39,123 nt of DNA from Candidatus Aenigmatarchaeota archaeon (GTDB taxonomy: Archaea > Aenigmatarchaeota > Aenigmatarchaeia > Aenigmatarchaeales > Aenigmatarchaeaceae). This document shows, piece after piece, positions 6,147-20,441 of this stretch. The first letter of the stretch is position 1. Every line of letters begins with the position of its first letter. The notes beneath the pieces are model-generated. The model was not told where the DNA came from. It made no database searches and was given only the letters and a program-made list of their open reading frames with translations. A program made the translations under genes and the position numbers. The stretch spans positions 1 to 39,123 of the forward strand of contig JAAOXY010000082.1 of assembly GCA_018221065.1 (NCBI GenBank), written 5' to 3'.

Positions 6147-6152
6147 ATCCAC

Positions 6153-6339: not shown

Positions 6340-6355
6340 AAAATAATCTCCTTTT

Positions 6356-6391: not shown

Positions 6392-6392
6392 T

Positions 6393-6548: not shown

Positions 6549-6594
6549 TTTTTATCTCCTCCTTAAAGTTAAATAAGTTTAATAATTTATTATT

Positions 6595-6616
6595 AGTAAT
6601 TAATATATATAGAATT
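6595..6616 (-). promoter_or_regulatory. early promoter-like cassette core
   Basis: AGTAATTAATATATATAGAATT. Confidence 0.5.
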
Positions 6617-6658
6617 AACATCTAAAAATAACGGTGCCGCCGGCAGCTTGCTATCCCG

Positions 6659-6943: not shown

Positions 6944-7077
6944 TTGCTTTCTTCCTCTTTATCGTCTTTGTATTTATCGATTGCATCTTTAGCTATTTTC
7001 TGAGCAGTCTTCCATAATCCAACTTCAAGGGAAACTATTTTATTAAGAGCATTTAATAACTCACCAATCGAAGCCAT
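6940..7077 (-). CDS. hypothetical helical protein (45 aa)
   Basis: Hand-translated, 46 codons. ATGA stop/start overlap with 6659..6943. Its ATG overlaps the end of 7061..7267. Confidence 0.4.
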   Translation of the reverse strand: MASIGELLNALNKIVSLEVGLWKTAQKIAKDAIDKYKDDKEEESK

Positions 7078-7267
7078 TGTATCTTTCCTTTCTGCTTTTA
7101 TTTTGTTTTTTCTTAATATAATAATCTTTAATAGTTAAGATGATTGCTATAATTCCACATAAGATAGCCCATGCCACTAGAAAATCAAAGTCATATTTTG
7201 GTTTAGATATTATTCTTAGGAATACAGCAACAACAAACATACTATAGAAAGTTACTTTAATAGACAT
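7061..7267 (-). CDS. membrane protein (68 aa)
   Basis: ORF track. AAGGAGGATAAATTA RBS. Two hydrophobic segments. Confidence 0.65.
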   Translation of the reverse strand: MSIKVTFYSMFVVAVFLRIISKPKYDFDFLVAWAILCGIIAIILTIKDYYIKKKQNKSRKERYNGFDW

Positions 7268-7291
7268 TAATTTATCCTCCTTTTAAAAAAA

Positions 7292-7321
7292 AGAGACATC
7301 CCTTAACTGGGAGATGTCTCT
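7292..7321 (-). terminator. terminator hairpin (AGAGACATC / GATGTCTCT)
   Basis: A-run followed by a 9-bp stem. Lies between 7338..7874 and 7061..7267. Confidence 0.55.
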
Positions 7322-7337
7322 CTATAAATCAAAGATC

Positions 7338-7874
7338 CTATTTATGGATTTTGATCTCGCCGACCTTTTCATCATCATTGACAATCATAACAGTTATTCC
7401 TGTTAATGTCTCATCATTGAATCTCATGTATATCAAGCTGACTTCCTCAACAATTCTATTATTGCTGATCCCTACTCCAGTGTTAAATCCAAAGAATAAA
7501 CCTCTTTGGGTGCGTGTAGTTTGGGTTCCGGCTGGTGTCCCACAGTAATACTTCACTCTATCTATGGGATCGCCTTTTTTAATTTCCTTCCCATCACATT
7601 TTAGGACATTGTCTGATATATCAATTTTGCCCCTATGCCTTTCTGCGGCATCAGATTCAGAGACTCCAACAGCAATCATAAGAGCAACACCAATGAAGAA
7701 AAATATTACTGCTATACAAAACCATCGAATCATCAATCTTTTTAATTGTATTACAATGGGATCCTTCAAACCATATCCTTTTCTTAATCTGTTCTCCCGA
7801 TCTTTTTCAAATGGACTTGCTTTTAGTAATGCAACAATTGCTAGAATCATTGCTAAAGCACCTAGAATAATCAT
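7338..7874 (-). CDS. membrane-anchored protein (178 aa)
   Basis: ORF track. GGAGGTGTCATT RBS. N-terminal hydrophobic segments. Confidence 0.75.
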   Translation of the reverse strand: MIILGALAMILAIVALLKASPFEKDRENRLRKGYGLKDPIVIQLKRLMIRWFCIAVIFFFIGVALMIAVGVSESDAAERHRGKIDISDNVLKCDGKEIKKGDPIDRVKYYCGTPAGTQTTRTQRGLFFGFNTGVGISNNRIVEEVSLIYMRFNDETLTGITVMIVNDDEKVGEIKIHK

Positions 7875-7903
7875 AATGACACCTCCTTTTAATTTAAATT
7901 AGG

Positions 7904-7973
7904 TACCCCGCAGAGGGGTCGAACCTCCTGTGCCGCTTCGTAAAAGAACGGCTGCTCCTAACAGCAACGGGGT
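7904..7973 (-). tRNA. tRNA-like element with a non-canonical anticodon arm
   Basis: Minus-strand read: a 7-bp acceptor stem (ACCCCGT/GCGGGGT), U8, a D-loop GG, a T arm GGAGG-TTCGACC-CCTCT, and a discriminator A followed by CC. The anticodon arm has either a C.A mismatch with loop UUUUACG, or a perfect 5-bp stem CCGUU/AGCGG with a 9-nt loop CUUUUACGA. Confidence 0.4.
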
Positions 7974-7980
7974 ATGATAA

Positions 7981-8520
7981 CTATCCCAATCTACTATCAT
8001 GATCAAACATTTTAACAAATTGTTTTGCCATACCTTTTACTTGGCCTTGTAGTATAATTCCCCAAGTGTCTCTTATTTTTTTTACTGAAAGAATCTCAAG
8101 TTTCTCAAATTCCATTTCCCCCACTTCGACATACATTCGGGCAAGAATGTGACATATTGAATCTCCCTCTGAAACTGATCCGATGATATTCAAACTCTTG
8201 AAATCAACTCCTCCTCCTGCTTCAGAAGCCATCTCTACTGAGTTACGTAAGAAATTTGCGAAGAAGTCTATATCAGACATTTCTTTTATATCTTCTATGG
8301 TTTTTTCACTCCCAAAGAGCCCTTCAAAAAGGCCTGCCGAAAACTCTTCAGGGAATTCTACAGAAGATGCTTCTAATGGGGATGTTATCATAGATTTAAA
8401 CTCTTTCAATGCTTCTGGAGTATACAGTTTAGCAACCTCGTTCCATTCCTTCTTCTGTAGCTTTATAAAATACAATTTGGCCAAGAATTCTTCCGATTTA
8501 ACTACATTGTCTTTTACCAT
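7981..8520 (-). CDS. hypothetical acidic protein (179 aa)
   Basis: ORF track. GGAGGAGATATTACA RBS. Promoter core 40 nt upstream. Confidence 0.75.
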   Translation of the reverse strand: MVKDNVVKSEEFLAKLYFIKLQKKEWNEVAKLYTPEALKEFKSMITSPLEASSVEFPEEFSAGLFEGLFGSEKTIEDIKEMSDIDFFANFLRNSVEMASEAGGGVDFKSLNIIGSVSEGDSICHILARMYVEVGEMEFEKLEILSVKKIRDTWGIILQGQVKGMAKQFVKMFDHDSRLG

Positions 8521-8559
8521 TGTAATATCTCCTCCTGATAAAATAAGATTTTGTTTATT

Positions 8560-8581
8560 AGTAATTAATATATATAGAATA
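8560..8581 (-). promoter_or_regulatory. early promoter-like cassette core
   Basis: AGTAATTAATATATATAGAATA. Confidence 0.5.
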
Positions 8582-8596
8582 AGTCGCTAAAAATAA

Positions 8597-8806
8597 CTAT
8601 CCGACCCGACCATAAACTGGTGGCAAACCAAAGAATCTTCGAGCATTATCAATTGTATCCAAACTATTAGAGTCTATATATTCAAGCAATAGAGAACAAT
8701 CCTTAGACCGTGCTAGATTGGTCACATCCTCAAAAGGGAAAGTACCGATTAAACTTTTACATATAGCTAATACTATACAATTTTTACATGGGACATCAGT
8801 CATCAT
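8597..8806 (-). CDS. Cys-containing protein, PCKxCIxxAIC subfamily (69 aa)
   Basis: ORF track. MMTDVPCKNCIVLAICKS.. Confidence 0.7.
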   Translation of the reverse strand: MMTDVPCKNCIVLAICKSLIGTFPFEDVTNLARSKDCSLLLEYIDSNSLDTIDNARRFFGLPPVYGRVG

Positions 8807-8972
8807 AAGTATTTTTCTTTCTATGACTAAGAAGTCTCATAGATAAAAATGGATGACCGATTTGATCTCTACACCATTTATGCATCGCATCCTCATCTTC
8901 GAACTCCTTCTCCCAAGGCTTCCCGTCAGGAGTTTCCTCATTATATGTTTGGAACGTTCCTATAATTGTCAT
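8796..8972 (-). CDS. hypothetical protein (58 aa)
   Basis: Hand-translated, 59 codons: MTIIGTFQTYNEETPDGKPWEKEFEDEDAMHKWCRDQIGHPF.. Overlaps the start of 8597..8806. Confidence 0.45.
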   Translation of the reverse strand: MTIIGTFQTYNEETPDGKPWEKEFEDEDAMHKWCRDQIGHPFLSMRLLSHRKKNTYDD

Positions 8973-9010
8973 AGATTTAATCCTTTCCTTTTATTAGTTT
9001 CATTAGATTT

Positions 9011-9220
9011 TTAAATACTATTATATTCATGGACAGCTTTCGCTATATCACTTCCAGAATATATAACAGATCCAGCCCTGCATACATTGAATAACATAGA
9101 TTTTATAATAGGGTTTACAGTCATTATAAGATCTTTGTGTTCAGTTCTTCCCCTGATTGAAGCTAAAACATGTTCAATTTTAAAATCCTTTAACTCTTCA
9201 ATACTTATTTGATGTGTCAT
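9011..9220 (-). CDS. hypothetical protein (69 aa), paralog of 3171..3410
   Basis: ORF track. GGAAGGAGG RBS. Confidence 0.65.
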   Translation of the reverse strand: MTHQISIEELKDFKIEHVLASIRGRTEHKDLIMTVNPIIKSMLFNVCRAGSVIYSGSDIAKAVHEYNSI

Positions 9221-9256
9221 TTAATTCTACCTCCTTCCTGAAAAATCTGGCGGGCT

Positions 9257-9293
9257 CACAGTTCCAGAAATTACTTGCATTCCTGGAACTGTG
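9257..9293 (-). other. perfect 11-bp hairpin inside a GC-richer intergenic segment
   Basis: CACAGTTCCAG (9257-9267) pairs with CTGGAACTGTG (9283-9293), 15-nt loop. Enclosed by TCTGGC (9246-9251) and GCCAGA (9362-9367). Confidence 0.5.
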
Positions 9294-9373
9294 ACTTTAC
9301 CTCACCGCGGGATTAGTATAGGAGCTGTCTTTCATCCTTGCGAGAATCAGACGGGCAACCTGCCAGAATTTAT

Positions 9374-9754
9374 TTATCCTATTTTAATATGAAAATCAAT
9401 CTCGATGAATCTCTTGATGAATCTCTTTGCTCTCTTGAATTGGTCTCGGTGTTTTCTTTCTCTACATAACCAGCGGCGTTTTCTTTCTTGACAATAATCT
9501 TCACGCCTTATATGCCGAAAATCGTAATGCCTACATTTACAACATATTCGCTCATCTACATATGCAAGAGAGCAAGTAACTCCATGATAAGGACACTTTC
9601 CCCGAAGCCCATGGTCACTATGTAGATCAGGTTTATCCCAATCACATGCATAGAATTTACAATTACAACAAACTCGCTCATTACCCATACCTTTAAGATC
9701 ACAACCAAAACATCCACCATGATACGCAGCTCCACCACGATAATATCTTCTCAT
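9374..9754 (-). CDS. Cys/His-rich basic protein with internal ER[VI]CCxCxxY repeat (126 aa)
   Basis: ORF track. GGAGGTGAAATT RBS. NERVCCNCKFY and DERICCKCRHY. Confidence 0.7.
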   Translation of the reverse strand: MRRYYRGGAAYHGGCFGCDLKGMGNERVCCNCKFYACDWDKPDLHSDHGLRGKCPYHGVTCSLAYVDERICCKCRHYDFRHIRREDYCQERKRRWLCRERKHRDQFKRAKRFIKRFIEIDFHIKIG

Positions 9755-9797
9755 AATTTCACCTCCTTGAAAAATTTAAGTTTAATAATTATTTATT

Positions 9798-9819
9798 AAT
9801 AATTAATATATATAGAATT
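9798..9819 (-). promoter_or_regulatory. early promoter-like cassette core
   Basis: AATAATTAATATATATAGAATT, 44 nt upstream of ATG 9754. Confidence 0.5.
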
Positions 9820-9826
9820 AGAATCC

Positions 9827-9860
9827 AAAAAAAGATCAGCTAGCTACCCTGATCTTTTTT
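9827..9860. terminator. bidirectional terminator
   Basis: A-run, AGATCAG ... CTGATCT, T-run. Confidence 0.6.
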
Positions 9861-9890
9861 GTATAGGTTCTGTACCTAAGCTCTATAGTT

Positions 9891-10124
9891 CTAGCTTTCT
9901 ATCCGTCTCCGGCATTCAGTTGCGATGGTTTCCACATTCTGAAAGGCATGATACCAACCTGTTACCATAATTGCAAGACTCACAATTCCAAATACCCAAT
10001 AGAACCAAGGCATTGAACCCATCACTTCATAATAATGAAAGATGTTCCATGATAACCAGACACCAATTGAAAACACTATCCAAAACCCAAACGCTTCTTT
10101 CACATTTCTTCTTAAGTCTTTCAT
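9891..10124 (-). CDS. membrane protein (77 aa)
   Basis: ORF track. GGAGG RBS. Two hydrophobic segments. Confidence 0.7.
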   Translation of the reverse strand: MKDLRRNVKEAFGFWIVFSIGVWLSWNIFHYYEVMGSMPWFYWVFGIVSLAIMVTGWYHAFQNVETIATECRRRIES

Positions 10125-10167
10125 AGTGTAACCTCCTATTAAAATAAGTGTTGTATAACTCCTTTAT

Positions 10168-10191
10168 CATTCATTAATATATATAGTAATT
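10168..10191 (-). promoter_or_regulatory. early promoter-like cassette core
   Basis: CATTCATTAATATATATAGTAATT, 44 nt upstream of ATG 10124. Confidence 0.5.
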
Positions 10192-10216
10192 ATTTCTTTC
10201 TTGGGTAAAATGGGTA

Positions 10217-10403
10217 TCAAGGATGCTTTTCTATAATTTCATCAAAATATTTCTGTCTTATTTGACATTCAAAAAATTTTTTACACATAGCTTTAACTAC
10301 ACAAATACCACATAGGACATTTTCCATTATTCAATCCTTCTAAATCACACCCTTTTAAAATCCAGAAATAGTACCCACAACCAGTACAATGTTTATTTTC
10401 CAT
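10217..10403 (-). pseudogene. frameshifted Cys-rich family member
   Basis: MENKHCTGCGYYFWILKGCDLEGLNNGKCP, then one extra base (TGT CCT A TGT), then CGICVVKAMCKKFFECQIRQKYFDEIIEKHP*. Frame 0 stops at 10293-10295. Span is 187 nt (3n+1). Confidence 0.5.
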
Positions 10404-10413
10404 CTTCCTCCTT

Positions 10414-10455
10414 AAAAAAAAGAGATCAGGCCATAAGGACTCCAATCTCTTTTTA
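10414..10455 (-). terminator. intrinsic terminator
   Basis: A-run, AGAGAT ... ATCTCT, T-run. Confidence 0.5.
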
Positions 10456-10537
10456 TCGCAACCTCAAGAAAGGTCCGTTGACTTGGGACCTGCCACAAGC
10501 CAGTTCTGCCACCAAATCAGAAGTATGCGAATTTCAT

Positions 10538-10708
10538 TTAATGAAATGTGAAATTTTCAAATTCCATTCCCAAAAGTTCAAGAGGCATATCTTCATCTAT
10601 GAGCGTTTCAGCTAGGCGTTTATTCTCTAACCATTCTTTTATCACTGGACACATATCACGGCATTCATGTCTACCGGGACATATAGCACAAGGACTATTT
10701 GGATCCAT
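10538..10708 (-). CDS. small Cys-containing protein (56 aa), C-half-like motif PCAIC..C..MC
   Basis: Hand-translated, 57 codons. GGAGGTAATTCGA RBS. Promoter core 40 nt upstream. Preferred over the antisense track ORF 10548..10730. Confidence 0.55.
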   Translation of the reverse strand: MDPNSPCAICPGRHECRDMCPVIKEWLENKRLAETLIDEDMPLELLGMEFENFTFH

Positions 10709-10747
10709 TCGAATTACCTCCTTAAAATAATTAAGATTTTGTTTATT

Positions 10748-10769
10748 AGAAATTAATATATATAGAATT
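10748..10769 (-). promoter_or_regulatory. early promoter-like cassette core
   Basis: AGAAATTAATATATATAGAATT. Confidence 0.5.
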
Positions 10770-10775
10770 AAGAAC

Positions 10776-10943
10776 TTAACTTAATTTTTTAGATTGGTTT
10801 TTATACCACTCATCCCAACTTTCACATCCATAATCACACATCATTTTAACAAGACAATTCGTACATGGACATGAACCATCTTGAATTTTATAACACCTTA
10901 TAGCTATTGTTTTATATGAGCACCCATCACATTTATTCCTCAT
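10776..10943 (-). CDS. small Cys-rich protein, family member (55 aa)
   Basis: Hand-translated: MRNKCDGCSYKTIAIRCYKIQDGSCPCTNCLVKMMCDYGCESWDEWY.. Confidence 0.6.
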   Translation of the reverse strand: MRNKCDGCSYKTIAIRCYKIQDGSCPCTNCLVKMMCDYGCESWDEWYKNQSKKLS

Positions 10944-11112
10944 TATCTATATCCCACTTATCATGATCATCACATATATTGTAGCACATCGGTTTAACGA
11001 CACATATCCCACATGGACAGTTTCCATCATCATTATAATAATTAGAACATACATTGCCTTTAGCGTAACACCCATCGCAATAATTATGATTTATTTCTTT
11101 ATAAGGATTCAT
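10933..11112 (-). CDS. small Cys-rich protein, family member (59 aa)
   Basis: Hand-translated codon by codon: MNPYKEINHNYCDGCYAKGNVCSNYYNDDGNCPCGICVVKPMCYNICDDHDKW.. Confidence 0.6.
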   Translation of the reverse strand: MNPYKEINHNYCDGCYAKGNVCSNYYNDDGNCPCGICVVKPMCYNICDDHDKWDIDNEE

Positions 11113-11295
11113 ATTTAAGATCCTCTTTAAATAAACGCCATTCCCTCCATTTATAGCACCAATCCTGACACATCATTTTTACAATGCATTTGGAGCATGG
11201 ACATGAACCTTCTAGATTAAATTCTCTTACAGAATAACAAGCTCCAATATGGGAGTCACCGGACAACCTTGACAGTTTGGACGATCACCACCCAT
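11099..11295 (-). pseudogene. frameshifted Cys-rich family member
   Basis: MGGDRPNCQGC in frame 0 (stop at 11227-11229). The rest, GDSHIGACYSVREFNLEGSCPCSKCIVKMMCQDWCYKWREW.., is in another frame. Span is 197 nt (3n+2). Confidence 0.5.
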
Positions 11296-11554
11296 AAGAG
11301 TTGGAAAGAAAAGCGGGCTCTACTACAGCCTTTTTTTCTTTATATGTTGGGAGTTTATTCCATGCTTCATATGCTTCTTTGTCACCTCCATGATAAAACA
11401 TATAACTTGCATCACACACGACTTCAATGACATGCTCTTTCGGCATTACTGGAGGTTGCCCATTATCCTCTAAGGCCCTTAAAGAATCACCGCCAATATA
11501 ATCCCATGTTCTTAAAGCCATATTTTGTATTCTTGTTTTCATTCTCTCATCCAT
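11285..11554 (-). CDS. hypothetical protein (89 aa)
   Basis: ORF track. Overlapping-gene operon. Confidence 0.75.
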   Translation of the reverse strand: MDERMKTRIQNMALRTWDYIGGDSLRALEDNGQPPVMPKEHVIEVVCDASYMFYHGGDKEAYEAWNKLPTYKEKKAVVEPAFLSNSYGW

Positions 11555-11804
11555 CTTTTTCCTCCATATTCAAATGTTTTTTAATCTCATCTAAATCATC
11601 TTGAATGTGTATGAGTCTTTCTGTTTTATTAGATTGTTTCCTATGTTGAAGTATATCATCTAAAACTTCTGCTTCTTTTCTACCTGAGACAAATTCCCAG
11701 ATGTAATGACCATATTCAGAAATTAGATGAACAATAACCAAAATTGATAGTATGGCATCCCAATATTTCCATGCCATTAGTGATTGCATTAGATCAAGCA
11801 TCAT
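11547..11804 (-). CDS. hypothetical protein with N-terminal TM (85 aa)
   Basis: ORF track. Confidence 0.7.
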   Translation of the reverse strand: MMLDLMQSLMAWKYWDAILSILVIVHLISEYGHYIWEFVSGRKEAEVLDDILQHRKQSNKTERLIHIQDDLDEIKKHLNMEEKDG

Positions 11805-12114
11805 CTATCTCCTTTTCAACTGTTGGTCTTTCCCCATATGCGTCTAGATCTTTTGGAGCGTCAAATAATAAACTCATTTCTAATGCGCCTCTAATTTGGT
11901 TAAGAAAAAGCGTTTTACACATTGTCCATTCATAGTTTGCAACGCATCTTCCATTTCCGTTTTTAGACCACTCTCCTTCTTTAATTCCATTCTCCCGCAT
12001 AATATTATAAAACTTTTCTTTTAAAGTTTTTATCATTCGTTTGTTTACGGGCATTTTAATAATGTCTTCTGCTACTTTCCTCATCTTTAAATTTCGTTTA
12101 TCATTTTGATTCAT
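11794..12114 (-). CDS. hypothetical protein (106 aa)
   Basis: ORF track. ATGA overlap with the upstream frameshifted ORF. Confidence 0.75.
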   Translation of the reverse strand: MNQNDKRNLKMRKVAEDIIKMPVNKRMIKTLKEKFYNIMRENGIKEGEWSKNGNGRCVANYEWTMCKTLFLNQIRGALEMSLLFDAPKDLDAYGERPTVEKEIDDA

Positions 12115-12309
12115 TTATTATCTCCCTTATATATTCCTTGGGGGTATTGTCTGTTATACCAATCGCTCCATTTGTCACATACCTTTTCATCGTTACACAT
12201 TGGTTTAACCACACATGAAGTACATGGGCAGCCCCCCATTAATATTAATATCATTTTCTGCCTCGCATACCATTGATCCACATCCTATACAATGCCCATT
12301 TTTATTCAT
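12111..12309 (-). pseudogene. frameshifted or split Cys-rich family member
   Basis: MNKNGHCIGCGSMVCEAENDININGG, then a +1 shift at a G6 run (plus-strand CCCCCC 12232-12237), then CPCTSCVVKPMCNDEKVCDKWSDWY..*. An internal ATG at 12239 could start a 42-aa C-half ORF. Span is 199 nt (3n+1). Confidence 0.5.
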
Positions 12310-12314
12310 AGTCT

Positions 12315-12506
12315 CTAAACTCCTTCTATAAATATTTTTTGGTGAACCCATTCCTCTTCCCTATCACAAGTACAATAATGAGGCATCATTTTAACTATAC
12401 ATGTCATGCATGGGCAGCTTTCATCGCTGTTTAATATTGTGCTACATGGCAAAGAGTAGCAGTTTGGGTAATGGCTGCACCCTTTACAATATGGATTTTT
12501 ACTCAT
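12315..12506 (-). CDS. small Cys-rich protein, family member (63 aa)
   Basis: In-frame ATG 12506 (MSKNPYCKGC..ESCPCMTCIVKMMPHYCTC). Overlaps the ligase stop by 8 nt. The longer track start at 12581 lies inside the ligase gene. Confidence 0.65.
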   Translation of the reverse strand: MSKNPYCKGCSHYPNCYSLPCSTILNSDESCPCMTCIVKMMPHYCTCDREEEWVHQKIFIEGV

Positions 12507-13677
12507 AATCTCTAACTGCTTCAGCTTCAGCTGGGACTCCAACTGGTTGAAGTGGAACTCCATCTTCAGATAGTTCTGCATACCTGACAGTTAACATTGA
12601 ACCAATATCATTTGGAAGATTTAGAAGCATTGCTTTACGATCTTCGACTGTGCCTCTTGGCCTGGCATCAAACTCTATTCCTGTTTTGCTAATGCATCTA
12701 TATATGATACATCCCTCATCAGTTCCGGTACCTTCTTTTCCACCAACTATTTCAAACTCATCATCTTGATATGCTTTTACTTTTTCAAGATCATCTGAGT
12801 TATATTGAAATAGATATATTCCGTTTACATTCTTTAACATGGCTCCTTCAAAACCATTTTGAACACAATCATCGTGATATGCTTTTGCTTCAGCGTAGTT
12901 ATGAACTATCTTGCTTGGGGAAAATTTAATAGGACATATCATATCAGAATGATTTAACTCTAGTTTTGTTACTTCTTTCATAATCCATTTTATTCTTTCT
13001 TCAAATGTAGGTCCAATCCAAGCAATATCATATAACCAGTATTCTAAAAGGTGTTGATCTGGTTTTATTTTTTTGGTATATGATCCAATCTTTTGAAGAC
13101 TCCATCCATGAACATATAATTCTCCATGTACTGGAGCTGGAGCCTTAAGTTCTTTCAACCACGAATCAAGATGGGCAAGAGTGTTAAATAAATGACCACC
13201 TCTTGAATGATGAATCATTTGAAAATGTTCTACATCGATTTCAGCCAAATTACAAATGCCATTGAACTTCGGTTGAATATATGCGGGATATACAATCTTT
13301 CCTTTACCAACTCCCTTTGCGAGCTGAGGTAGCATGAGTCTTGGTTCATACTTAGGACCAACATTAGCAGAGCCATTTTTATTAACCTGGGGGTCGAGTA
13401 AGCCCAAATCAAACTCATAGTTGGCAGCTCTCTTAACTGTCAGCTGTGATTCAATTTGAGATTTAGCTTGCTCAAATGGAGTTGTTTCATTTGCTTTTCC
13501 AATATTCTTTCCCTTCTTTATTAGCTTTGGCATTGGTCGAATCTTCTGACCAACATAACCAGACTCAACAATAATAGATGCCGTATGGTTATCATGTTCT
13601 ACAACTTTCGCTTGCCATTGTTTCAATTTCCCTGTTCTACTTACTCCGAATAGTGCTGGAAGTTCTACGTTTTGCAT
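12499..13677 (-). CDS. lig: ATP-dependent DNA ligase (392 aa)
   Basis: ORF track. Nucleotidyltransferase motifs: PKFNG (KxDG-type motif I), EGAMLK (motif IV), LEKVK (motif V). Confidence 0.88.
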   Translation of the reverse strand: MQNVELPALFGVSRTGKLKQWQAKVVEHDNHTASIIVESGYVGQKIRPMPKLIKKGKNIGKANETTPFEQAKSQIESQLTVKRAANYEFDLGLLDPQVNKNGSANVGPKYEPRLMLPQLAKGVGKGKIVYPAYIQPKFNGICNLAEIDVEHFQMIHHSRGGHLFNTLAHLDSWLKELKAPAPVHGELYVHGWSLQKIGSYTKKIKPDQHLLEYWLYDIAWIGPTFEERIKWIMKEVTKLELNHSDMICPIKFSPSKIVHNYAEAKAYHDDCVQNGFEGAMLKNVNGIYLFQYNSDDLEKVKAYQDDEFEIVGGKEGTGTDEGCIIYRCISKTGIEFDARPRGTVEDRKAMLLNLPNDIGSMLTVRYAELSEDGVPLQPVGVPAEAEAVRDYE

Positions 13678-13877
13678 TATATTTCTTTTCCTTTCATTTC
13701 TTTATATCTTTGTCTCCATGCATAATTCCAGTATATCCATTTTGTGCAATCATCTTCTTTATCATGTTTACACATTACTTTAACAATGCAATTATGACAC
13801 GGGCATGAACCATTAATTCCATAGCATACATGAAAGCATGTTTTCTCTACTGAACACCCTCTACAGTTTGTCATCAT
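13677..13877 (-). CDS. small Cys-rich protein, family member (66 aa)
   Basis: ORF track. MMTNCRGC..GSCPCHNCIVKVMC. Stop overlaps the ligase ATG. Confidence 0.75.
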   Translation of the reverse strand: MMTNCRGCSVEKTCFHVCYGINGSCPCHNCIVKVMCKHDKEDDCTKWIYWNYAWRQRYKEMKGKEI

Positions 13878-13881
13878 TTTA

Positions 13882-14070
13882 TTAGTCTTTTAGGTATTCA
13901 TATTCAAGATCATCAGGCTGTTTTCCATATTGCATCTTCATTGTTTCTATTTTACTCTCTGCTGCTTTGGGCAGAGCGAATCCTCCCACAATGCCTTTAC
14001 CATGACAATTCCACCTTGGATCTAATTTAGATTCTAACCACCATGATCCTTCTTTCATACTCATATACAT
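13882..14070 (-). CDS. hypothetical protein (62 aa)
   Basis: ORF track. GGAGA upstream. The in-frame ATG at 14064 has better spacing and may be the true start. Confidence 0.6.
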   Translation of the reverse strand: MYMSMKEGSWWLESKLDPRWNCHGKGIVGGFALPKAAESKIETMKMQYGKQPDDLEYEYLKD

Positions 14071-14118
14071 TCTCCTTTCAGAATAATTATTTTGATTTGC
14101 ATGTCTTCCCTCCTTAAG

Positions 14119-14152
14119 AAAAAAATAGTGCCCCTAAAAATTCGGGGCACTA
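14119..14152 (-). terminator. intrinsic terminator
   Basis: AGTGCCCC ... GGGGCACT 8-bp stem, with a T-run on the minus strand. Below the stop of 14158..14343. Confidence 0.65.
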
Positions 14153-14157
14153 CTTGA

Positions 14158-14343
14158 TTAAAAACTATATTCCATTGCAAGTTCGAGTTCCTTAAGCACT
14201 TGTTCATGAACTGTATCTGGAAGACGTTGACCTGTTTCAAGATCGATGACTTCAAAGATTGATAAGGCTTGTTCAACTTTTGAAAACCAAACCCCATATC
14301 CACAACCGTCGATATAAACATTTTTTGTCATTAGACTTTTCAT
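14158..14343 (-). CDS. hypothetical protein (61 aa)
   Basis: ORF track. GGAGGTAGTACT RBS. Confidence 0.6.
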   Translation of the reverse strand: MKSLMTKNVYIDGCGYGVWFSKVEQALSIFEVIDLETGQRLPDTVHEQVLKELELAMEYSF

Positions 14344-14356
14344 AGTACTACCTCCA

Positions 14357-14623
14357 TCATCGCAGATTTTTGTGCATTATTAAAAGATGACTCCCAACTC
14401 TCTTTCTCAGCTTTGATCTTCTGTTTTGTATGGCAGCTACAGATCTTCCCAAACATCCATGGAGGTCACGATCTGATAGTTCTGATGTAATAATGAGAGC
14501 GTCTTCATCAGCAGTGTATAGTTGACATTTATTTATTGTTGGGTGGAACTGATCATAGTATTTCTTTTTACCTGCTTGCCATATATCCGGATGTTTTACC
14601 CTCCATCTTTTATTCGGTGTCAT
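14357..14623 (-). CDS. putative Myb/SANT-like helix-turn-helix protein (88 aa)
   Basis: ORF track. YTADEDALI...LGRSVAAIQNRRSKL resembles a Myb-like repeat. This is a weak, motif-level call only. Confidence 0.55.
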   Translation of the reverse strand: MTPNKRWRVKHPDIWQAGKKKYYDQFHPTINKCQLYTADEDALIITSELSDRDLHGCLGRSVAAIQNRRSKLRKRVGSHLLIMHKNLR

Positions 14624-14790
14624 TTTTTCACCTCCTTGGTTAGTGACTCTAAAAGTTGAAGACTGGCAACATTTGTATTGTATTTTTTTATCTTCTTTAA
14701 TCGTCTGGCTATTTTTCCACCAGGCCGAAAACGATAGTGATTCATACGTCTTTGATGTTTGAATTTTTTATTCCCGTCTCTTCTTGGCAT
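14620..14790 (-). CDS. highly basic small protein (56 aa)
   Basis: Hand-translated, 57 codons: MPRRDGNKKFKHQRRMNHYRFRPGGKIARRLKKIKKY.. GGAGGAGTTACA RBS. ATGA overlap with the next gene. Confidence 0.45.
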   Translation of the reverse strand: MPRRDGNKKFKHQRRMNHYRFRPGGKIARRLKKIKKYNTNVASLQLLESLTKEVKK

Positions 14791-14815
14791 TGTAACTCCT
14801 CCTTGTTTACAATGT

Positions 14816-15064
14816 TTATTCGGGTTTAATTATGGGGCCGATAACGTAATTCTTTATTTTGTCTAAAACTAAATTTACTTCTGCTGTATCTAAGTTTGAG
14901 GATGTTGCTTGAACATGAAAATTATTTCTATCAATTTTTTCGACGAGAATGACTATACCAGCATTAGGACCTTCAATTTTTTCAGCATCTTTTAACATCC
15001 CCTCTACTGTTTGAAATCTGGTGTCTCCGGTTTTATCATAAAGATCTATGATCTTTCTTGCCAT
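14816..15064 (-). CDS. hypothetical protein (82 aa)
   Basis: ORF track. GGAGGAATT RBS. Confidence 0.7.
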   Translation of the reverse strand: MARKIIDLYDKTGDTRFQTVEGMLKDAEKIEGPNAGIVILVEKIDRNNFHVQATSSNLDTAEVNLVLDKIKNYVIGPIIKPE

Positions 15065-15078
15065 AATTCCTCCTTTGT

Positions 15079-15104
15079 AAAAAAAGGGAATGCCTCAATT
15101 CCCC
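15079..15104 (-). terminator. intrinsic terminator
   Basis: GGGAAT ... ATTCCC stem, with a T-run on the minus strand. Confidence 0.5.
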
Positions 15105-15122
15105 TCTTCCTCTTGATTAGTA

Positions 15123-15317
15123 TTAAACTTTGATAAGCTCAACTTTGTCGCATATGTCATGAGCTAAATTATAAATACCATACCCAAGTAAGTGTGTTGC
15201 TGCTGCATTAAACTTTTCGTTCGCAAGATACACAGTTCCACAATCCATCTCATGAATATTTTCCGGATAGTAATCCCCTTCATCATTTTTCTTTAAGGAA
15301 ACCAATCTTAATATCAT
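15123..15317 (-). CDS. hypothetical protein (64 aa)
   Basis: ORF track. GGAGGTGTG RBS. Promoter core 50 nt upstream. Confidence 0.65.
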   Translation of the reverse strand: MILRLVSLKKNDEGDYYPENIHEMDCGTVYLANEKFNAAATHLLGYGIYNLAHDICDKVELIKV

Positions 15318-15366
15318 TCTTTCACACCTCCTTTCTAATTAAATTAGTAATGAATAACTTCTTACT

Positions 15367-15388
15367 ATTAATTAATATATATAGTATT
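15367..15388 (-). promoter_or_regulatory. early promoter-like cassette core
   Basis: ATTAATTAATATATATAGTATT. Confidence 0.5.
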
Positions 15389-15431
15389 CACATATAAAAG
15401 GAAGGAGTGGGGATAAAAAAAGGGAACATAG

Positions 15432-15626
15432 TTATCCCTTTTTTGGAAGGGAAGATTCGCAACCCCATTCGTAAGTTTTGAATTCTATACATTCTTCTGA
15501 ACACATAACTTTTACAACACAATTAGTACATGGACAAGAGGCGTTTATATTATAGTTGATATATTTACATCGAACGTCTCCACTCTCATAGGAATAGATT
15601 TTACAGCCTTCACAAAACTTATCCAA
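15432..15626 (-). CDS. small Cys-rich protein, family member (64 aa)
   Basis: ORF track. TTG start with AGGAG 7 nt upstream. MDKFCEGC..ASCPCTNCVVKVMC. Confidence 0.65.
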   Translation of the reverse strand: MDKFCEGCKIYSYESGDVRCKYINYNINASCPCTNCVVKVMCSEECIEFKTYEWGCESSLPKKG

Positions 15627-15678
15627 AATATTTCTCCTTTATTCGTCTGCTAAATTAATCAAATCCTCCATTTTTAAT

Positions 15679-15710
15679 AAAAAAAGAGGACCTCCTACTC
15701 CCTCTTTTTT
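15679..15710 (-). terminator. weak intrinsic terminator
   Basis: A-run, AGAGG ... CCTCT, T-run. Confidence 0.4.
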
Positions 15711-15719
15711 GGTTTAAGA

Positions 15720-16028
15720 TTATCGTAAAGTCTGTCTTTTCCATGGTTCTTTTTCTATTCGATAAATATACCAGCCTGCGGATATGAAGACCAGAGCGGT
15801 TACAGTACCACAAATGACCCAGATAGCCCATTTGATATAAACTCCTATTGTTAAGGGCTTATTTCCTTTGATATCCTCATAACTGAATATGGATGCTATA
15901 AATAATCCACAAGCAAACCAGAACATTATCACAAACGTAGTGGGTGGCCATGTGAAATAGAACAGCACAGACATTAGACTACCCCATATGACGAAGAACC
16001 AAATTGGTACGACATTATCTTGTTTCAT
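15720..16028 (-). CDS. polytopic membrane protein (102 aa)
   Basis: ORF track. Three or four hydrophobic segments. Confidence 0.7.
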   Translation of the reverse strand: MKQDNVVPIWFFVIWGSLMSVLFYFTWPPTTFVIMFWFACGLFIASIFSYEDIKGNKPLTIGVYIKWAIWVICGTVTALVFISAGWYIYRIEKEPWKRQTLR

Positions 16029-16059
16029 AAGTTTTTCTCCTTTTTAGATTGTAGATTGC

Positions 16060-16302
16060 TTATACATAATTCCCTATAATATAAACAATCCCACACATGA
16101 CGGTGACTCCACAGGCAGTATACCCAAAAATGATTCCAATTACCTTTACAAACTCAGCATCAATATTCCACCACCATCTTGGCTTATAGTACTTGATGCT
16201 GCCATGTTTGCTTGAGAGATCAACCTGTACTTTTCGATTCTTCTTAATCATGATCAAAAGAATCAGAAATGCCACCGATGCAAACAATATTGGTAGATTC
16301 AT
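16060..16302 (-). CDS. membrane protein (80 aa)
   Basis: ORF track. N- and C-terminal hydrophobic segments. Confidence 0.7.
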   Translation of the reverse strand: MNLPILFASVAFLILLIMIKKNRKVQVDLSSKHGSIKYYKPRWWWNIDAEFVKVIGIIFGYTACGVTVMCGIVYIIGNYV

Positions 16303-16327
16303 AGCTCACCTCCTTACTTTTAATGTA

Positions 16328-16585
16328 TTAGCTCCTGCCCGATTCAAGCTCATAACCTTTTATTTCCATGCACCCCTCAAACACTTTTCTCCAGACTTCA
16401 ACTCGCTCATGATACTTGATGACCCCATCCATAGAAGCTTCATAGGCTTTGGTATTGCAGTAGTCTTTGTCAGCTTCAAACTGATTTTGGCTTTGCATCT
16501 TTAAAGGAGTAAAGAGTTTCTTGGGAGTTTGAGCACATGCTCCAAACATCAAAAACACTAGGGCTATAATCGTTAATTGTTTCAT
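16328..16585 (-). CDS. putative lipoprotein (85 aa)
   Basis: In-frame ATG 16585 with GGAGGAG RBS. MKQLTIIALVFLMFGAC signal peptide with lipobox. Confidence 0.7.
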   Translation of the reverse strand: MKQLTIIALVFLMFGACAQTPKKLFTPLKMQSQNQFEADKDYCNTKAYEASMDGVIKYHERVEVWRKVFEGCMEIKGYELESGRS

Positions 16586-16720
16586 AAGATACTCCTCCTG
16601 TAAAATTATTGAACATCTTGAATTAAGAATAAGACATAACCAATCCACCATAAACTCGCCGCCGTTAATTCATACCACTTGAGTTTATCAATCAACATAA
16701 ATTGATAATCGATTAATAAC

Positions 16721-17194
16721 TTAAGGAGTTGCTTCAATGGTTCCACCTGGCCCATGAACTTCAAACCAATGAAGCGAATTGTCATGTTTGGCGAACATGT
16801 GGTATTGATCAATGCTATGAGTAATAACGATTGTAATATCACTTGAGATATCATTTATTTCCTGACAGGATCCGGTTGAAGCATATGTTTGATAATCAGT
16901 ATAATATGCTTCCTGTGCTAGTACTGCTGTGTGAAGTGCTGACATCGCATCTGTATCAAATGCTCTCACTCGATAATATGCAAACTGAGGAATTGCAATA
17001 GCAGCAAGGGTACCAATGATGGCTATAACTATTATCAACTCGATGAGAGTGAAACCTTTTTCATCGCTTCTAATCTTTATCATCTTTTTTGGTTTTGATC
17101 TAGAACCGAATTTAAGAATCCATAACACCAAGACGACACCGATCATGATTGAGAAACTCCAGATCATAAAATCATCACTTTGTAAATAAGTCAT
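16721..17194 (-). CDS. type IV pilin-like / pseudopilin-like protein (157 aa)
   Basis: ORF track. KGFTLIELIIVIAIIGTLAAIAIPQF is the prepilin N-terminal cleavage/methylation motif. A strong GGAGG RBS serves the long form starting at 17194. An internal ATG at 17083 would give a classic short leader. Confidence 0.75.
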   Translation of the reverse strand: MTYLQSDDFMIWSFSIMIGVVLVLWILKFGSRSKPKKMIKIRSDEKGFTLIELIIVIAIIGTLAAIAIPQFAYYRVRAFDTDAMSALHTAVLAQEAYYTDYQTYASTGSCQEINDISSDITIVITHSIDQYHMFAKHDNSLHWFEVHGPGGTIEATP

Positions 17195-17229
17195 AGTATT
17201 ACCTCCTTTTAATTTAGTATATATTTCTT

Positions 17230-17394
17230 TTATTTTCTGTATTTTTTATTCATTTCTTTAACCAATGGATCAATAATTTCATCTCCCCTTTTAACGAGAT
17301 GTTTAAGTTCATCGTCTTCAATGGTTGTTTCCTTGAGAGTTTTTAACAACATCGCCAAGGTCATAAGATCGGCATCATATATAATAGAACTCAT
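17230..17394 (-). CDS. hypothetical protein (54 aa)
   Basis: In-frame ATG 17394 with AAGGAGG RBS. Promoter core 53 nt upstream. Confidence 0.6.
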   Translation of the reverse strand: MSSIIYDADLMTLAMLLKTLKETTIEDDELKHLVKRGDEIIDPLVKEMNKKYRK

Positions 17395-17446
17395 TTGAAC
17401 CTCCTTTTTTAGGTTAATAAATATATACAAATAGGTCTTTTATTTT

Positions 17447-17468
17447 CATTAATTAATATATATAGAAA
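17447..17468 (-). promoter_or_regulatory. early promoter-like cassette core
   Basis: CATTAATTAATATATATAGAAA. Confidence 0.5.
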
Positions 17469-17525
17469 AACGAAATAAAGGGAACAAAAAAATGTCCGTC
17501 CCTTACACCCGCCCGATAACTATAT

Positions 17526-17548
17526 CAATAATTAATATATATAGAAAG
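17526..17548 (-). promoter_or_regulatory. early promoter-like cassette core (orphan tandem copy)
   Basis: CAATAATTAATATATATAGAAAG. No ORF lies between it and the next core. On the minus strand it is followed by an AAGGGAC..GTTCCCTT hairpin and a T-rich tract. Confidence 0.4.
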
Positions 17549-17563
17549 TGAAACTAAAAAAAG

Positions 17564-17597
17564 GTAGGGGACAACTTATAAATAAGAAGTCCCCTAC
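17564..17597 (-). terminator. 9-bp hairpin GTAGGGGAC / GTCCCCTAC with T-run on the minus strand
   Basis: Seen directly in the strand-switch region. Confidence 0.45.
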
Positions 17598-17691
17598 AGA
17601 AAGGAGATAGATAACTACATGTATACTATTAATAAAGTTGATCCGCGGCATACAAGCGCGAAACTCCAGTATATGAATATACTGGAATAAC

Positions 17692-17700
17692 TAGAACAAA
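17692..17700 (+). promoter_or_regulatory. + strand operon motif TAGAACAAA
   Basis: 19 nt upstream of ATG 17720. One of six copies. Confidence 0.45.
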
Positions 17701-17719
17701 TATCAAAGGAGATTTAGTT

Positions 17720-18322
17720 ATGAATGATTATAATAAAGATAATTATGAGATCAAAAAATCTGATATTCATGGGCGTGGGGTTTTTTCAAATAAGAATTTT
17801 AGCGCAGGTGAATTGATTAATTTGGCTATTGATAATATGCAGGCAACACACTTCGGCGGATTCTTAAATCATTCTGATTCTCCAAATGCCGTTACAAGAA
17901 AAAATAAAAATAAGTATTATACTTTTGCTTTGGCTAGAATTAAACCAGGTGATGAAATAGCAGTTGATTATACTGTCAATAAAGATCTTGAGCAACCAGA
18001 ATCTACATGGAAATATCATCAAGAAGCTTCGCCAAATAATGGAGTATTCACTGATACAAATCCAAAAGTAGATGATGAAACTATTTCTTCTTTATATAAA
18101 GGGACTGTTCCTCAAGGAAAAAATGCTGAAGTAGAAGTTGATGACGATGTTGAAGAAAGCACAACTGCCAATCAACCAAATCCTGGTTTCGCTTCTGGGA
18201 TAGATAAGAGCCCGGACGATTCATATCTTAATCTTCTTAAAAAATCTATCAAACCAACAAAGATAGTAATCAATATAACTAAAGATAATAGGGGAGCTGA
18301 TCCTTATAATAAAGTTCACTAA
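17720..18322 (+). CDS. minimal SET-domain methyltransferase-like protein with acidic low-complexity tail (200 aa)
   Basis: ORF track. HGRGVFS..F.AGELI, GGFLNHSDSPNA (NHSxxPN motif), IKPGDEIAVDY (post-SET-like ELxxDY position). Confidence 0.75.
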   Translation: MNDYNKDNYEIKKSDIHGRGVFSNKNFSAGELINLAIDNMQATHFGGFLNHSDSPNAVTRKNKNKYYTFALARIKPGDEIAVDYTVNKDLEQPESTWKYHQEASPNNGVFTDTNPKVDDETISSLYKGTVPQGKNAEVEVDDDVEESTTANQPNPGFASGIDKSPDDSYLNLLKKSIKPTKIVINITKDNRGADPYNKVH

Positions 18323-18362
18323 AAAATACCACACATAATAGTAACCATGTGTAGTATTTTTG
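18321..18362. terminator. bidirectional terminator
   Basis: A-run, ATACCACACAT ... ATGTGTAGTAT, T-run. Lies between convergent genes. Confidence 0.6.
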
Positions 18363-18370
18363 TTTCTCTC

Positions 18371-18538
18371 CTATTTAGACGATTTCCTGTGATGTGTTGA
18401 TTTTCTCTTTTTGGATTTTTTTCTCTTTGCTTTTGCCTGGAATCTTGCTTCCATTCGTTTCTCTCTGGCTCTGGCGTTCAGTATTGTTACCACCGTACTA
18501 AACGAAAGCAATCCAATGTAAAACCACATTTTTCCCAT
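18371..18538 (-). CDS. small membrane protein with highly basic tail (55 aa)
   Basis: In-frame ATG 18538 with GGGGGATAAATACT, the same 17-nt initiation region as at 1937. Confidence 0.55.
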   Translation of the reverse strand: MGKMWFYIGLLSFSTVVTILNARAREKRMEARFQAKAKRKKSKKRKSTHHRKSSK

Positions 18539-18554
18539 AGTATTTATCCCCCTT

Positions 18555-18740
18555 TTAATTAAACATTTTGAGTCTAGGTTGTGTGAAGACCAGGTCACCA
18601 TTCCTCGGATTTATAACATAATCTTCATATATTTCAAGCGTTCGGAATTTTGGTTTTGTCTCTCTTGGGATGAAATGGAACATCTGGTCAAAGGCTAGAA
18701 ACAAACCGGATAGTAATATTATAAATACTGAAATAGTCAT
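18555..18740 (-). CDS. small membrane protein (61 aa)
   Basis: In-frame ATG 18740 with GGAGGTATTTGCT RBS. Promoter core 25 nt upstream. Confidence 0.55.
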   Translation of the reverse strand: MTISVFIILLSGLFLAFDQMFHFIPRETKPKFRTLEIYEDYVINPRNGDLVFTQPRLKMFN

Positions 18741-18764
18741 AGCAAATACCTCCTTAGATTTATT

Positions 18765-18788
18765 CACTAATTAATATATATAGTAATT
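18765..18788 (-). promoter_or_regulatory. early promoter-like cassette core
   Basis: CACTAATTAATATATATAGTAATT. Confidence 0.5.
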
Positions 18789-18824: not shown

Positions 18825-18986
18825 ATGAGAGAATCTTTTCCAAAAAAAGTTATAAGAGAGTTAAAACAGATGTTAGAAGATGCCCCCTTTCCGGATGAGG
18901 GATCTAAAAAAGATAGTAATGATGTTTTAGATGTTTTAGGGTGGAGACTTAATCTGGATGCTGAAGAAGATTCTGAGGAAGAGTGA
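18825..18986 (+). CDS. small acidic protein (53 aa)
   Basis: Hand-translated, 54 codons. GAGGT RBS. Preferred over the antisense track ORF 18788..19021. Confidence 0.5.
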   Translation: MRESFPKKVIRELKQMLEDAPFPDEGSKKDSNDVLDVLGWRLNLDAEEDSEEE

Positions 18987-19904: not shown

Positions 19905-20441
19905 ATGGAGAAATTAAAAAAAGAACTTGAAGAAACAAAGAAAGAATTAGAAAAAACTAAAACTGCTATTTGGGATATGATGAATTATTCTAGTATGTTT
20001 GTTTTAATTCTTGACGATAAAATGTGTATTCAATTTATCAACTGGAGTTTAGCTACAGCACTTGGTTTTAAAAATGAAGACGAGCCTCTTGGAAAATGTT
20101 GGTTGGATTTTATTCCAATAGAGCAGAGAGAAATTATATCAGGAATACATAATTCAATTAAAAATGCCGACGAAGAAAAACATAGAGAAATGATAAACGA
20201 TATTAAATGTGTCAATGGAGATGTGATGTCTATAAAATGGTTTAATACTAAAATAAACCGTGAACATGAATGGACTTTTAGTTTTGGTTTAGTAGTGGAA
20301 GCAGCCAATCAGGTTACAGAGGAATCTCTTAGATCATATTATCATGATATTATTCAGAAAGATCGAACTGCAATTTTGTCACTGAGGGATAAAATATTGA
20401 ACGGGTCTGTAACTCAAGATGTAGGCGAACCAAAACTTTAA
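19905..20441 (+). CDS. PAS-like domain protein (178 aa)
   Basis: ORF track. N-terminal coiled coil, then a PAS-fold-like pattern (..FVLILDDKMCIQFINWSLATALGF..E.LGK.WLDFIP...R..I...I... .DIKCVNGDVMSIKWFNT). Fold-level guess. Confidence 0.6.
   Translation: MEKLKKELEETKKELEKTKTAIWDMMNYSSMFVLILDDKMCIQFINWSLATALGFKNEDEPLGKCWLDFIPIEQREIISGIHNSIKNADEEKHREMINDIKCVNGDVMSIKWFNTKINREHEWTFSFGLVVEAANQVTEESLRSYYHDIIQKDRTAILSLRDKILNGSVTQDVGEPKL

Follow-up and report, generated by a model that had tools for sequence, protein, structure and literature searches.

What would a phage do with a SET-domain methyltransferase, and which protein would such an enzyme modify? The question is raised by a gene at positions 17720-18322 (+ strand, stop codon included) of contig JAAOXY010000082.1, a stretch of 39,123 nucleotides that was deposited in an assembly of Candidatus Aenigmatarchaeota archaeon (GCA_018221065.1) and is probably bacteriophage DNA. 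We analysed the whole contig, and refer to it as the window. Nearly all SET enzymes known to us are writers of chromatin marks that belong to eukaryotes or to a few pathogens and giant viruses. The open reading frame (ORF) is real. It encodes 200 amino acids (aa), and the full-length homologues of its product are 63-82% identical. We propose that this product is a two-module protein, composed of a stripped-down SET domain (residues ~8-97) and a disordered, mildly acidic module (residues ~98-200) that we call the junction-protein module. The module would be the functional partner of the SET enzyme.

The SET domain and its missing segment

Residues 8-97 of the window protein (17741-18010, + strand, as are all features of the gene given below) form a compact SET domain, and this domain is genuine. 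The protein matches PF00856 with 41.4 bits (E 2.1e-10; gathering cut-off 22.4), and a six-frame search of the whole assembly with PF00856 gave a match at the same place with 33 bits, also above the cut-off. When phmmer was run against PDB sequences, the first match was vSET of Paramecium bursaria chlorella virus 1 (PBCV-1; E 2e-5), with MLL1 and MLL2 behind it. The profile built from 83 relatives aligns with vSET in one continuous stretch (E 2.6e-18), with the GxG motif, the NHSxxPN motif and the catalytic Tyr in register. Using the 83-sequence alignment, AlphaFold2 (AF2) predicted residues ~11-80 with predicted local distance difference test (pLDDT) scores of 93-98. The best Foldseek match of the model in the PDB is again vSET (3kma_A; E 1.1e-7, template modelling score 0.67 normalised to the target, probability 1.00), and each of the best 50 among 219 PDB matches (E <= 0.001) is to a lysine methyltransferase of the SET type. 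An earlier reading made from the sequence alone, which we call the sequence-only reading, had likened the domain to minimal viral SET enzymes and had named PF00856 as the family to look for. Both the family match and the position of vSET as best match in sequence and fold agree with it.

The same reading had listed three hallmark motifs, and all are found in the protein, as H17-G-R-G-V-F22, N50-H-S-D-S-P-N56 and D78-E-I-A-V-D-Y84. The first contains the SAM-binding GxG motif G18-R-G20 (17771-17779; SAM, S-adenosylmethionine), which is aligned with GGYG of vSET and HGRG of MLL1. The NHSxxPN motif (17867-17887), whose Asn-His pair contacts SAM, is aligned with NHSKDPN of vSET and NHSCEPN of MLL1. 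The third is an ELxxDY-type motif (17951-17971), in which the catalytic Y84 is aligned with the Tyr of 'EEITISY' in vSET and of 'EELTYDY' in MLL1. A misalignment of the Tyr or Asn-His positions would have spoken against a SET enzyme; N50-H51 and Y84 are in register with both vSET and MLL1, within a confidently modelled core. In the 83-sequence alignment, S14, G20, N50, H51, E79 and Y84 are invariant and G18 is kept in at least 90% of the sequences. The C-terminal flank of the domain is specific to the clade: L90-E-Q-P-x3-W97 (17987-18010) is invariant in a 12-sequence alignment, and 'NKxLEQPxxxW' is the consensus at this flank in alignments of 50 and 83 sequences.

The domain had also been called very compact, which can be stated in residues. 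Relative to the family profile, vSET has 18 and MLL1 has 30 additional residues between the GxG strand and the NHS motif, and in a single-sequence alignment 5 residues of the query stand opposite 27 of vSET. The canonical SET-I insert of the SET-N, SET-I, SET-C architecture is absent from the compact family. SET-I is the segment that forms one wall of the peptide groove in solved SET structures. Because it is gone, the SET core here has ~90 residues, versus 119 in vSET, which to our knowledge is the smallest characterised SET enzyme. SET-I is variable and is no criterion of Pfam membership, so its absence makes the family a variant rather than excluding it.

The loss of SET-I could have left a fold that only binds SAM or protein, given that one wall of the peptide groove would be removed. 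The 18 residues missing relative to vSET, or 30 relative to MLL1, do include the SET-I strand and an aromatic motif. However, 83 diverged sequences have kept all SAM-binding and catalytic residues without change, which would not be expected of a dead enzyme, and a very large clade retains these motifs. We consider a non-catalytic SET domain very improbable. The domain is intact in every SAM-binding and catalytic motif, from which we infer an active SAM-dependent protein-lysine methyltransferase. The positions of the Phe/Tyr switch of other SET enzymes are occupied by V82 and T59, which, by what is generally known of this switch, suggests a roomier pocket.

Two well-studied enzymes are close enough for comparison. 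Like the window SET domain, vSET (A612L of PBCV-1; PDB 1n3j, 3kma) is virus-encoded and of stand-alone size, has the GxG and NHSxxPN motifs and the Tyr in register, and lacks a pre-SET or post-SET zinc cluster. It methylates K27 of host histone H3, acts as a homodimer and is packaged in the virion. The window protein differs from vSET in its core, which is 18 residues shorter because SET-I is missing, in its NKxLEQPxxxW flank, and in its fusion to a conserved disordered module. Moreover, the host of the window phage is a prokaryote, and probably a bacterium without histones. MLL1 and MLL2 (KMT2A/B; e.g., PDB 2w5y, 5f5e and 7bre) are the next-best matches in sequence and fold (profile E ~1e-17), and their catalytic motifs align with those of the window protein. 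They have a 30-residue SET-I insert, a post-SET domain and a need for WRAD partners as features of their own. Two residues before the catalytic Tyr, MLL1 has Y where the window protein has V82.

SET-domain lysine methyltransferases are also described in prokaryotes, namely Go1-SET of Methanosarcina mazei, an enzyme of Chlamydia, RomA/LegAS4 of Legionella and BaSET of Bacillus anthracis (PMC3980110). Go1-SET methylates MC1-alpha, a chromatin protein of its own cell (PMC3980110). These prokaryotic SET proteins are cellular genes or secreted effectors; none is phage-borne, none lacks SET-I and none carries the module. The words 'phages' and 'virus' do not occur in that review of prokaryotic SET proteins (PMC3980110). 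In the literature that we searched, the only phage SET-domain protein is an entry in a genome annotation, without a functional study (PMC9025141).

The relatives of the window SET domain make up a large metagenomic clade that is still uncharacterised. When 1.84 billion cluster representatives (50%-identity clusters) were searched with the profile, the compact SET domain was detected in 3,176 metagenomic proteins at E <= 0.001, with 392 of these at E <= 1e-10. Among the best 150 matches listed, many are stand-alone proteins of 100-130 aa. The domain also forms the N-terminus of metagenomic proteins of 1,300-2,160 aa (P0037, P0047, P0063, P0067 and P0152), and it is C-terminal in a family of 255-258 aa (P0177-P0190) whose SET part is 43-52% identical. 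For four of the long proteins (P0037, P0047, P0063 and P0067), Pfam and PHROGs recognised only the SET part, besides a sub-threshold match to DUF7210. Two matching PHROGs, 28741 and 34170, have no assigned function.

Among 50,697 isolated phage records searched with tblastn, only 7 match the family. They come from Pelagibacter phage Kolga, cyanophages P-RSM6 and P-SSM7 (two records each), a marine virus and a Caudoviricetes sp. Five of the 7 matches are annotated as hypothetical and one has no annotation, while that of the Caudoviricetes sp. is named after the structure of the PBCV-1 H3-Lys27 methyltransferase (vSET). A scan of IMG/VR with the family alignment found no relatives, nor did an alignment-based scan of GTDB genome contigs. 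The view that SET domains are uncommon in phages therefore holds in part: they are rare in isolated phages, but the compact type is abundant in metagenomes, with the 392 close cluster representatives, and two PHROGs already include it.

A conserved module behind the SET domain

The second half of the protein had been described as an acidic, low-complexity tail. It is mildly acidic (isoelectric point 4.87; 17 D+E versus 12 K+R), and residues 101-164, including a linker, are predicted to be disordered (AF2 pLDDT < 50). It is not of low complexity, however, with a sequence entropy of 3.89 bits versus 4.06 bits for the SET domain, and it is strongly conserved. In 7 full-length homologues, 55-81% of the columns are invariant in the motif and acidic linker segments of the tail, versus 46% in the SET domain. 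Rather than an appendage, the tail is an independent conserved module, which elsewhere is a gene of its own, either near a SET gene or without one.

The module contains two copies of a repeat unit of ~28 aa, each with the core Y-L-x-L-L-K followed by a basic strand. Copy 1 covers residues 115-143 (PKVDDETISSLYKGTVPQGKNAEVEVDDD; 18062-18148) and includes the candidate lysine K127. A conserved linker, VEESTTANQPNPGFAS (residues 144-159; 18149-18196), with 13 of its 16 columns invariant in the 7 full-length homologues, leads to copy 2 at residues 160-187 (GIDKSPDDSYLNLLKKSIKPTKIVINIT; 18197-18280). The latter has the candidate lysine K174 and matches the hidden Markov model (HMM) of the motif with an independent E-value (i-E) of 3e-22. 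The protein ends in KDNRGADPYNKVH (18281-18319), and the same ending, 'KD..PDP...H', occurs in the stand-alone module proteins of three related loci (L003, L011 and L012). In hhalign, the profile of copy 1 matches that of copy 2 with a probability of 89% (E 2e-6). An HMM built exclusively from stand-alone proteins of other phages matches both copies as well (i-E 1.5e-4 for copy 1 and 1.7e-3 for copy 2).

Relatives so distant that their SET domains are no more than 38-50% identical also have the motif ...TV[FY]GxGxNPxPxDE[ST]YLxLLKxxxKxKVxI.... Its Y-L-x-L-L-K core, lysine included, is invariant in 13 of 13 aligned module sequences from diverse phages. AF2 places a helix at residues 169-174 (pLDDT ~50-65), and the motif may be an amphipathic helix with the invariant lysine, followed by a short basic strand. 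Pfam and PHROGs gave no significant match to the stand-alone forms of the module or to the window tail, and neither the motif HMM nor the stand-alone HMM found the motif in other ORFs of the window. The stand-alone form has an additional N-terminal helix and a VxVDTSDExN segment. A 53-aa acidic gene at 18825-18986 was considered as the missing N-terminal half of the module, and was rejected when the stand-alone HMM gave no match there.

To see how the module is distributed, we searched every ORF of the window and of 31 related loci with the motif HMM; the related loci came from homologue look-ups and one metagenome scan. Three arrangements were found. The SET domain is fused to the module in one ORF in the window and in L001, L002, L005, L008, L009 and L024. 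In L003, L004, L010-L015, L017, L019 and L021, a tail-less SET protein of 111-131 aa is followed by a separate module gene. Finally, in L016, L020, L022, L023 and L025-L031, the module is a stand-alone protein of 130-136 aa, with no SET domain within 3 kb. In L018, which is a short contig, only the module was found.

The split arrangement itself varies. In L003, the SET protein (P0009) has 116 aa, and the module ATG lies 4 nucleotides (nt) past the SET stop codon and has no Shine-Dalgarno sequence of its own; its 65-aa product (P0228), in which Lys25 is the equivalent candidate lysine, ends in ...ITKDDKTPDPSIKTTH, like the window protein. In L012, L017 and L019, one or two minus-strand genes stand between the SET gene and the module gene. 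Over all loci, the two parts are linked by fusion, by translational coupling or by adjacency, or the SET part is missing. The genomic position is shared by loci with and without the enzyme. The strand switch in L001-L005, L008 and L009 puts the SET gene first on the + strand. Next come small genes and often a PAS-domain gene and a cluster of glycosyltransferases, which is also the order in the window. In the SET-less loci whose gene order was mapped (L016, L022, L025, L030 and L031), the module is the first + strand gene past a run of minus-strand genes. Given that the module is kept at this slot with or without a SET domain, it is the conserved element, and the SET domain is an optional cassette.

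Since the module occurs fused to the SET domain, separate from it and without it, it is the most likely partner or substrate of the enzyme. The sequence-only reading had named a host nucleoid protein, a ribosomal protein or a virion protein as possible targets, and to these the module adds a more specific candidate. In our proposal, the invariant lysines, K174 and its counterpart K127 in the first copy, are methylated by the SET domain of the same chain (in cis) or of a second chain (in trans). An active SET methyltransferase that has the module as its substrate, with these lysines as acceptors, is in our estimate somewhat less probable than an even chance. Such methylation would modulate the function, whichever it is, that the module has at the onset of + strand gene expression. 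The further step, in which the mini-SET and the Y-L-x-L-L-K module are a self-contained enzyme-substrate pair of the phage and methylation switches the activity of the junction protein, is more tentative, and we hold it to be rather unlikely as a complete scheme.

The combination of fused and split forms is reminiscent of enzymes that modify their own C-terminal peptide. In borosins (OphMA and bacterial split forms), a methyltransferase is fused to a C-terminal peptide, or encoded next to it in an adjacent gene, and this peptide is its own substrate. Borosin enzymes have another fold and carry out backbone N-methylation rather than lysine methylation. The likeness to the window protein is accordingly an analogy of architecture only.

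Several observations weigh against methylation of the module. The Y-L-x-L-L-K lysine is just as invariant in phages without a SET domain, and must therefore have a role that is independent of methylation. Many tail-less mini-SETs have no module nearby (e.g., in L006 and L007), so that in other phages the cassette evidently acts on, or together with, different proteins. In AF2 models of the 200-aa protein and of a 153-aa relative with a short linker, the motif is a free helix (pLDDT ~50-65) that is not docked on the SET domain. Fusion and adjacency are also equally compatible with a targeting handle as with a substrate.

Some of these observations are what would be expected if the enzyme were directed at the host. 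The SET domain would then methylate a host protein, such as a nucleoid-associated, transcription or translation factor, as vSET does with host histone H3; the module motifs would bind this target or its complex, and SET-less phages would use the module by itself for binding or inhibition. Among characterised proteins, vSET is the nearest in both sequence and fold, and short, strongly conserved motifs of a helix plus a strand within a disordered chain, such as those of the module, are what docking motifs typically look like. The undocked helix in the AF2 models is consistent with this explanation, as are the conservation of the module, including its lysine, where no SET domain is present, and the existence of mini-SETs that occur alone or with other partners. 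We regard a docking tail as a close rival of the substrate hypothesis, though rather unlikely in itself; the regulatory sequences described below fit it poorly.

The locus and its regulation

A Shine-Dalgarno sequence, AAGGAG (17706-17711, + strand), can be read 8 nt ahead of the ATG of the SET gene. GGAGG or AGGAG is found at -15 to -10 of 32-40% of the ORFs of the contig. At the other end of the gene, RNA folding predicts a hairpin between an A-run and a U-run (18322-18361, not assigned to a strand). It follows the TAA of the SET gene and is unusually stable (free energy -11.1 kcal/mol, z -3.84), with 0 of 200 shuffled sequences equally stable. The hairpin is probably a bidirectional terminator, shared by the SET gene and the convergent minus-strand gene. 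With a Shine-Dalgarno sequence upstream and a terminator-like hairpin past the stop codon, the SET gene is therefore a self-contained unit. It had been taken for the first gene of the plus-strand arm. The strand is right, but minus-strand genes flank the gene on both sides (17230-17430 and 18371-18767), and the uninterrupted + arm starts only at ~18825/19033.

Other genes near the SET gene can be noted here. Directly past it, two small minus-strand genes at 18371-18767 encode 76 and 70 aa with hydrophobic stretches. A comparable small minus-strand pair lies past the SET gene in distant relatives (L038, 5410-5868; L012, 2223-2729), and in split loci the pair stands between the SET gene and the module gene. 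A few genes past the junction gene is a PAS-domain protein, at 19905-20441 (+ strand) in the window, where the match is weak, at 10370-11287 in L008 and at 6325-7236 in L038. The L008 protein has 305 aa and two PAS matches, and in L038 and L040 the PAS domain is fused to a response-regulator receiver. This conserved PAS protein looks like a phage-borne sensor. Elsewhere in the window, ARAGORN predicts a tRNA at 7902-7973 (minus strand) whose anticodon, TTA, would read the stop codon UAA. The SET ORF is unaffected by it, because its TAA is followed by the terminator.

Two sequence motifs upstream of the SET gene are candidates for its regulation. The first is TAGAACAAA (17692-17700, + strand), a putative promoter or regulatory element 19 nt ahead of the ATG. 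The window contains 4 exact copies of it, each of which is on the + strand and precedes a + strand gene. The other three, at 19001, 26624 and 28885, precede the units that start at 19033, 26662 (the tail-fibre gene) and 28920. Shuffling predicts 0.93 copies, and 4 copies were reached in 1 of 100 shuffles. When the window and 25 related loci are taken together, 21 of the 26 have GAACAAA ~8-30 nt ahead of the annotated junction-gene start, and this holds for SET genes and stand-alone module genes alike.

The second motif is a 20-nt AT-rich cassette, TTAATTAATATATATAGAAA, of which there are 11 copies at 3470-18786, all in one orientation, versus 0.06 expected. Two of the copies, at 17449 and 17528, lie upstream of the SET gene in the intergenic region 17431-17719. 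In several relatives, the cassette is found 6-22 nt upstream of the GAACAAA of + strand genes, and may therefore act towards either strand. Between the two copies in the window is a conserved hairpin-containing segment, GGGAACAAAAAAATGTCCGTCCC..., which is common to L001 (1020-1170), L002 and L005. A further ~130 nt, found only in the window, contain a GC hairpin (17564-17597) and a mini-ORF of 23 codons with its own Shine-Dalgarno sequence (17619-17690).

From these upstream motifs we infer that the SET gene is probably co-regulated with the + strand operons, which contain glycosylation, fibre, structural and lysis genes. It appears to be separate in its regulation from the minus-strand genes for small proteins. 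Such a pattern bears on the docking tail discussed above. The SET gene carries the motif of the + strand operons, as the tail-fibre gene at 26662 does, and not the cassette of the minus-strand, presumably early genes, which is a poor fit to an immediate-early takeover of the host.

The same pattern raises the possibility of a virion-associated enzyme, which would be made together with the structural genes and would either modify virion proteins or be packaged and ejected with the DNA, with the module as its incorporation signal. GAACAAA precedes the SET gene as it does the tail-fibre operon at 26662 and the + strand units that begin at 19033 and 28920. In PBCV-1, vSET is found within the virions, and in the metagenomic proteins of 1,300-2,160 aa the compact SET is an N-terminus, with no other Pfam domain in the four that were searched. 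However, the window gene is monocistronic, and ~8 kb separate it from the tail-fibre gene, the first that can be recognised as a virion gene. No PHROG or Pfam match links the module to a capsid or tail, and the long SET fusion P0037 (1,952 aa) had no tblastn match in the isolated phages. We consider a virion-associated enzyme improbable.

The host and the meaning of the pair

The identity of the host determines whether histones could be the target, as they are for vSET. The window is the whole of contig C40, the longest in an assembly of 0.64 Mb and 109 contigs. By the marker genes of the assembly, which include three for histone-fold proteins and one for ribosomal protein S8e but none for HU or L20, the bin is archaeal. 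Taken at face value, the contig would belong to a virus of this small-genome archaeon, and its SET domain would methylate the histones of the host. The contig is the largest of an assembly with these archaeal markers, and P0175, a SET relative on a contig of an NCBI assembly, is labelled Candidatus Pacearchaeota there.

Four kinds of evidence point elsewhere. First, GGAGG precedes 32% of the ORFs of the contig, versus 4% in the remaining bin, which favours GGTGA at -9. Second, the only PF07963 prepilin motif of the assembly, which is of the bacterial type, is on this contig (E 8e-10), and relatives of the window phage carry PilX_N. Third, there are signals of peptidoglycan hydrolases; the match to Peptidase_M15_4 in the window is weak (22.8 bits, below the cut-off), and SLT is found in two relatives (L008 and L009). 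Fourth, of 35 contigs only two have a lower tetranucleotide correlation with the bin than this one (0.955), even though no contig is longer.

In addition, no spacer-like matches (of the clustered regularly interspaced short palindromic repeat, or CRISPR, kind) and no terminal repeats were found for the contig, and among 371 genomes of the phylum, the phage-type SET domain is present only in this one. We think it quite likely, from these signals, that the contig is a mis-binned bacteriophage with a bacterial host. Because ribosome-binding-site usage, the prepilin motif, the peptidoglycan-hydrolase signals and composition favour such a host, we keep an archaeal virus that methylates histones only at a very low probability.

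Eight other small-genome archaea of the same class (L043-L050; genomes G119, G167, G187-G189, G264, G316 and G339) have weaker SET matches (E 1e-11 to 1e-14). The ORFs are mostly of 148-167 aa, with one of 452 aa, and at least two lie deep in long contigs of near-complete genomes. These matches are probably cellular SET genes, distinct from the phage-type SET.

New in this locus is the use of a SET domain without SET-I as an optional cassette on a conserved, undescribed phage protein, and with it a specific partner and a concrete substrate hypothesis. The clade to which it belongs consists of phage-borne SET domains of ~90 residues in hundreds of 50%-identity clusters, which lack the SET-I wall of the groove and are unstudied. 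In the literature that we searched, there is no candidate substrate for other phage SET domains. The pattern of fused, split and absent SET genes supplies a concrete hypothesis of a substrate or partner. A module that serves as a docking handle should point the way to the host target. One that is the substrate would mean that phages regulate their own proteins by lysine methylation. An enzyme-substrate pair of this kind, if true, would be the first methyl-lysine switch made wholly of phage parts, and would give a function to a very large clade of SET domains that are smaller than any characterised so far.

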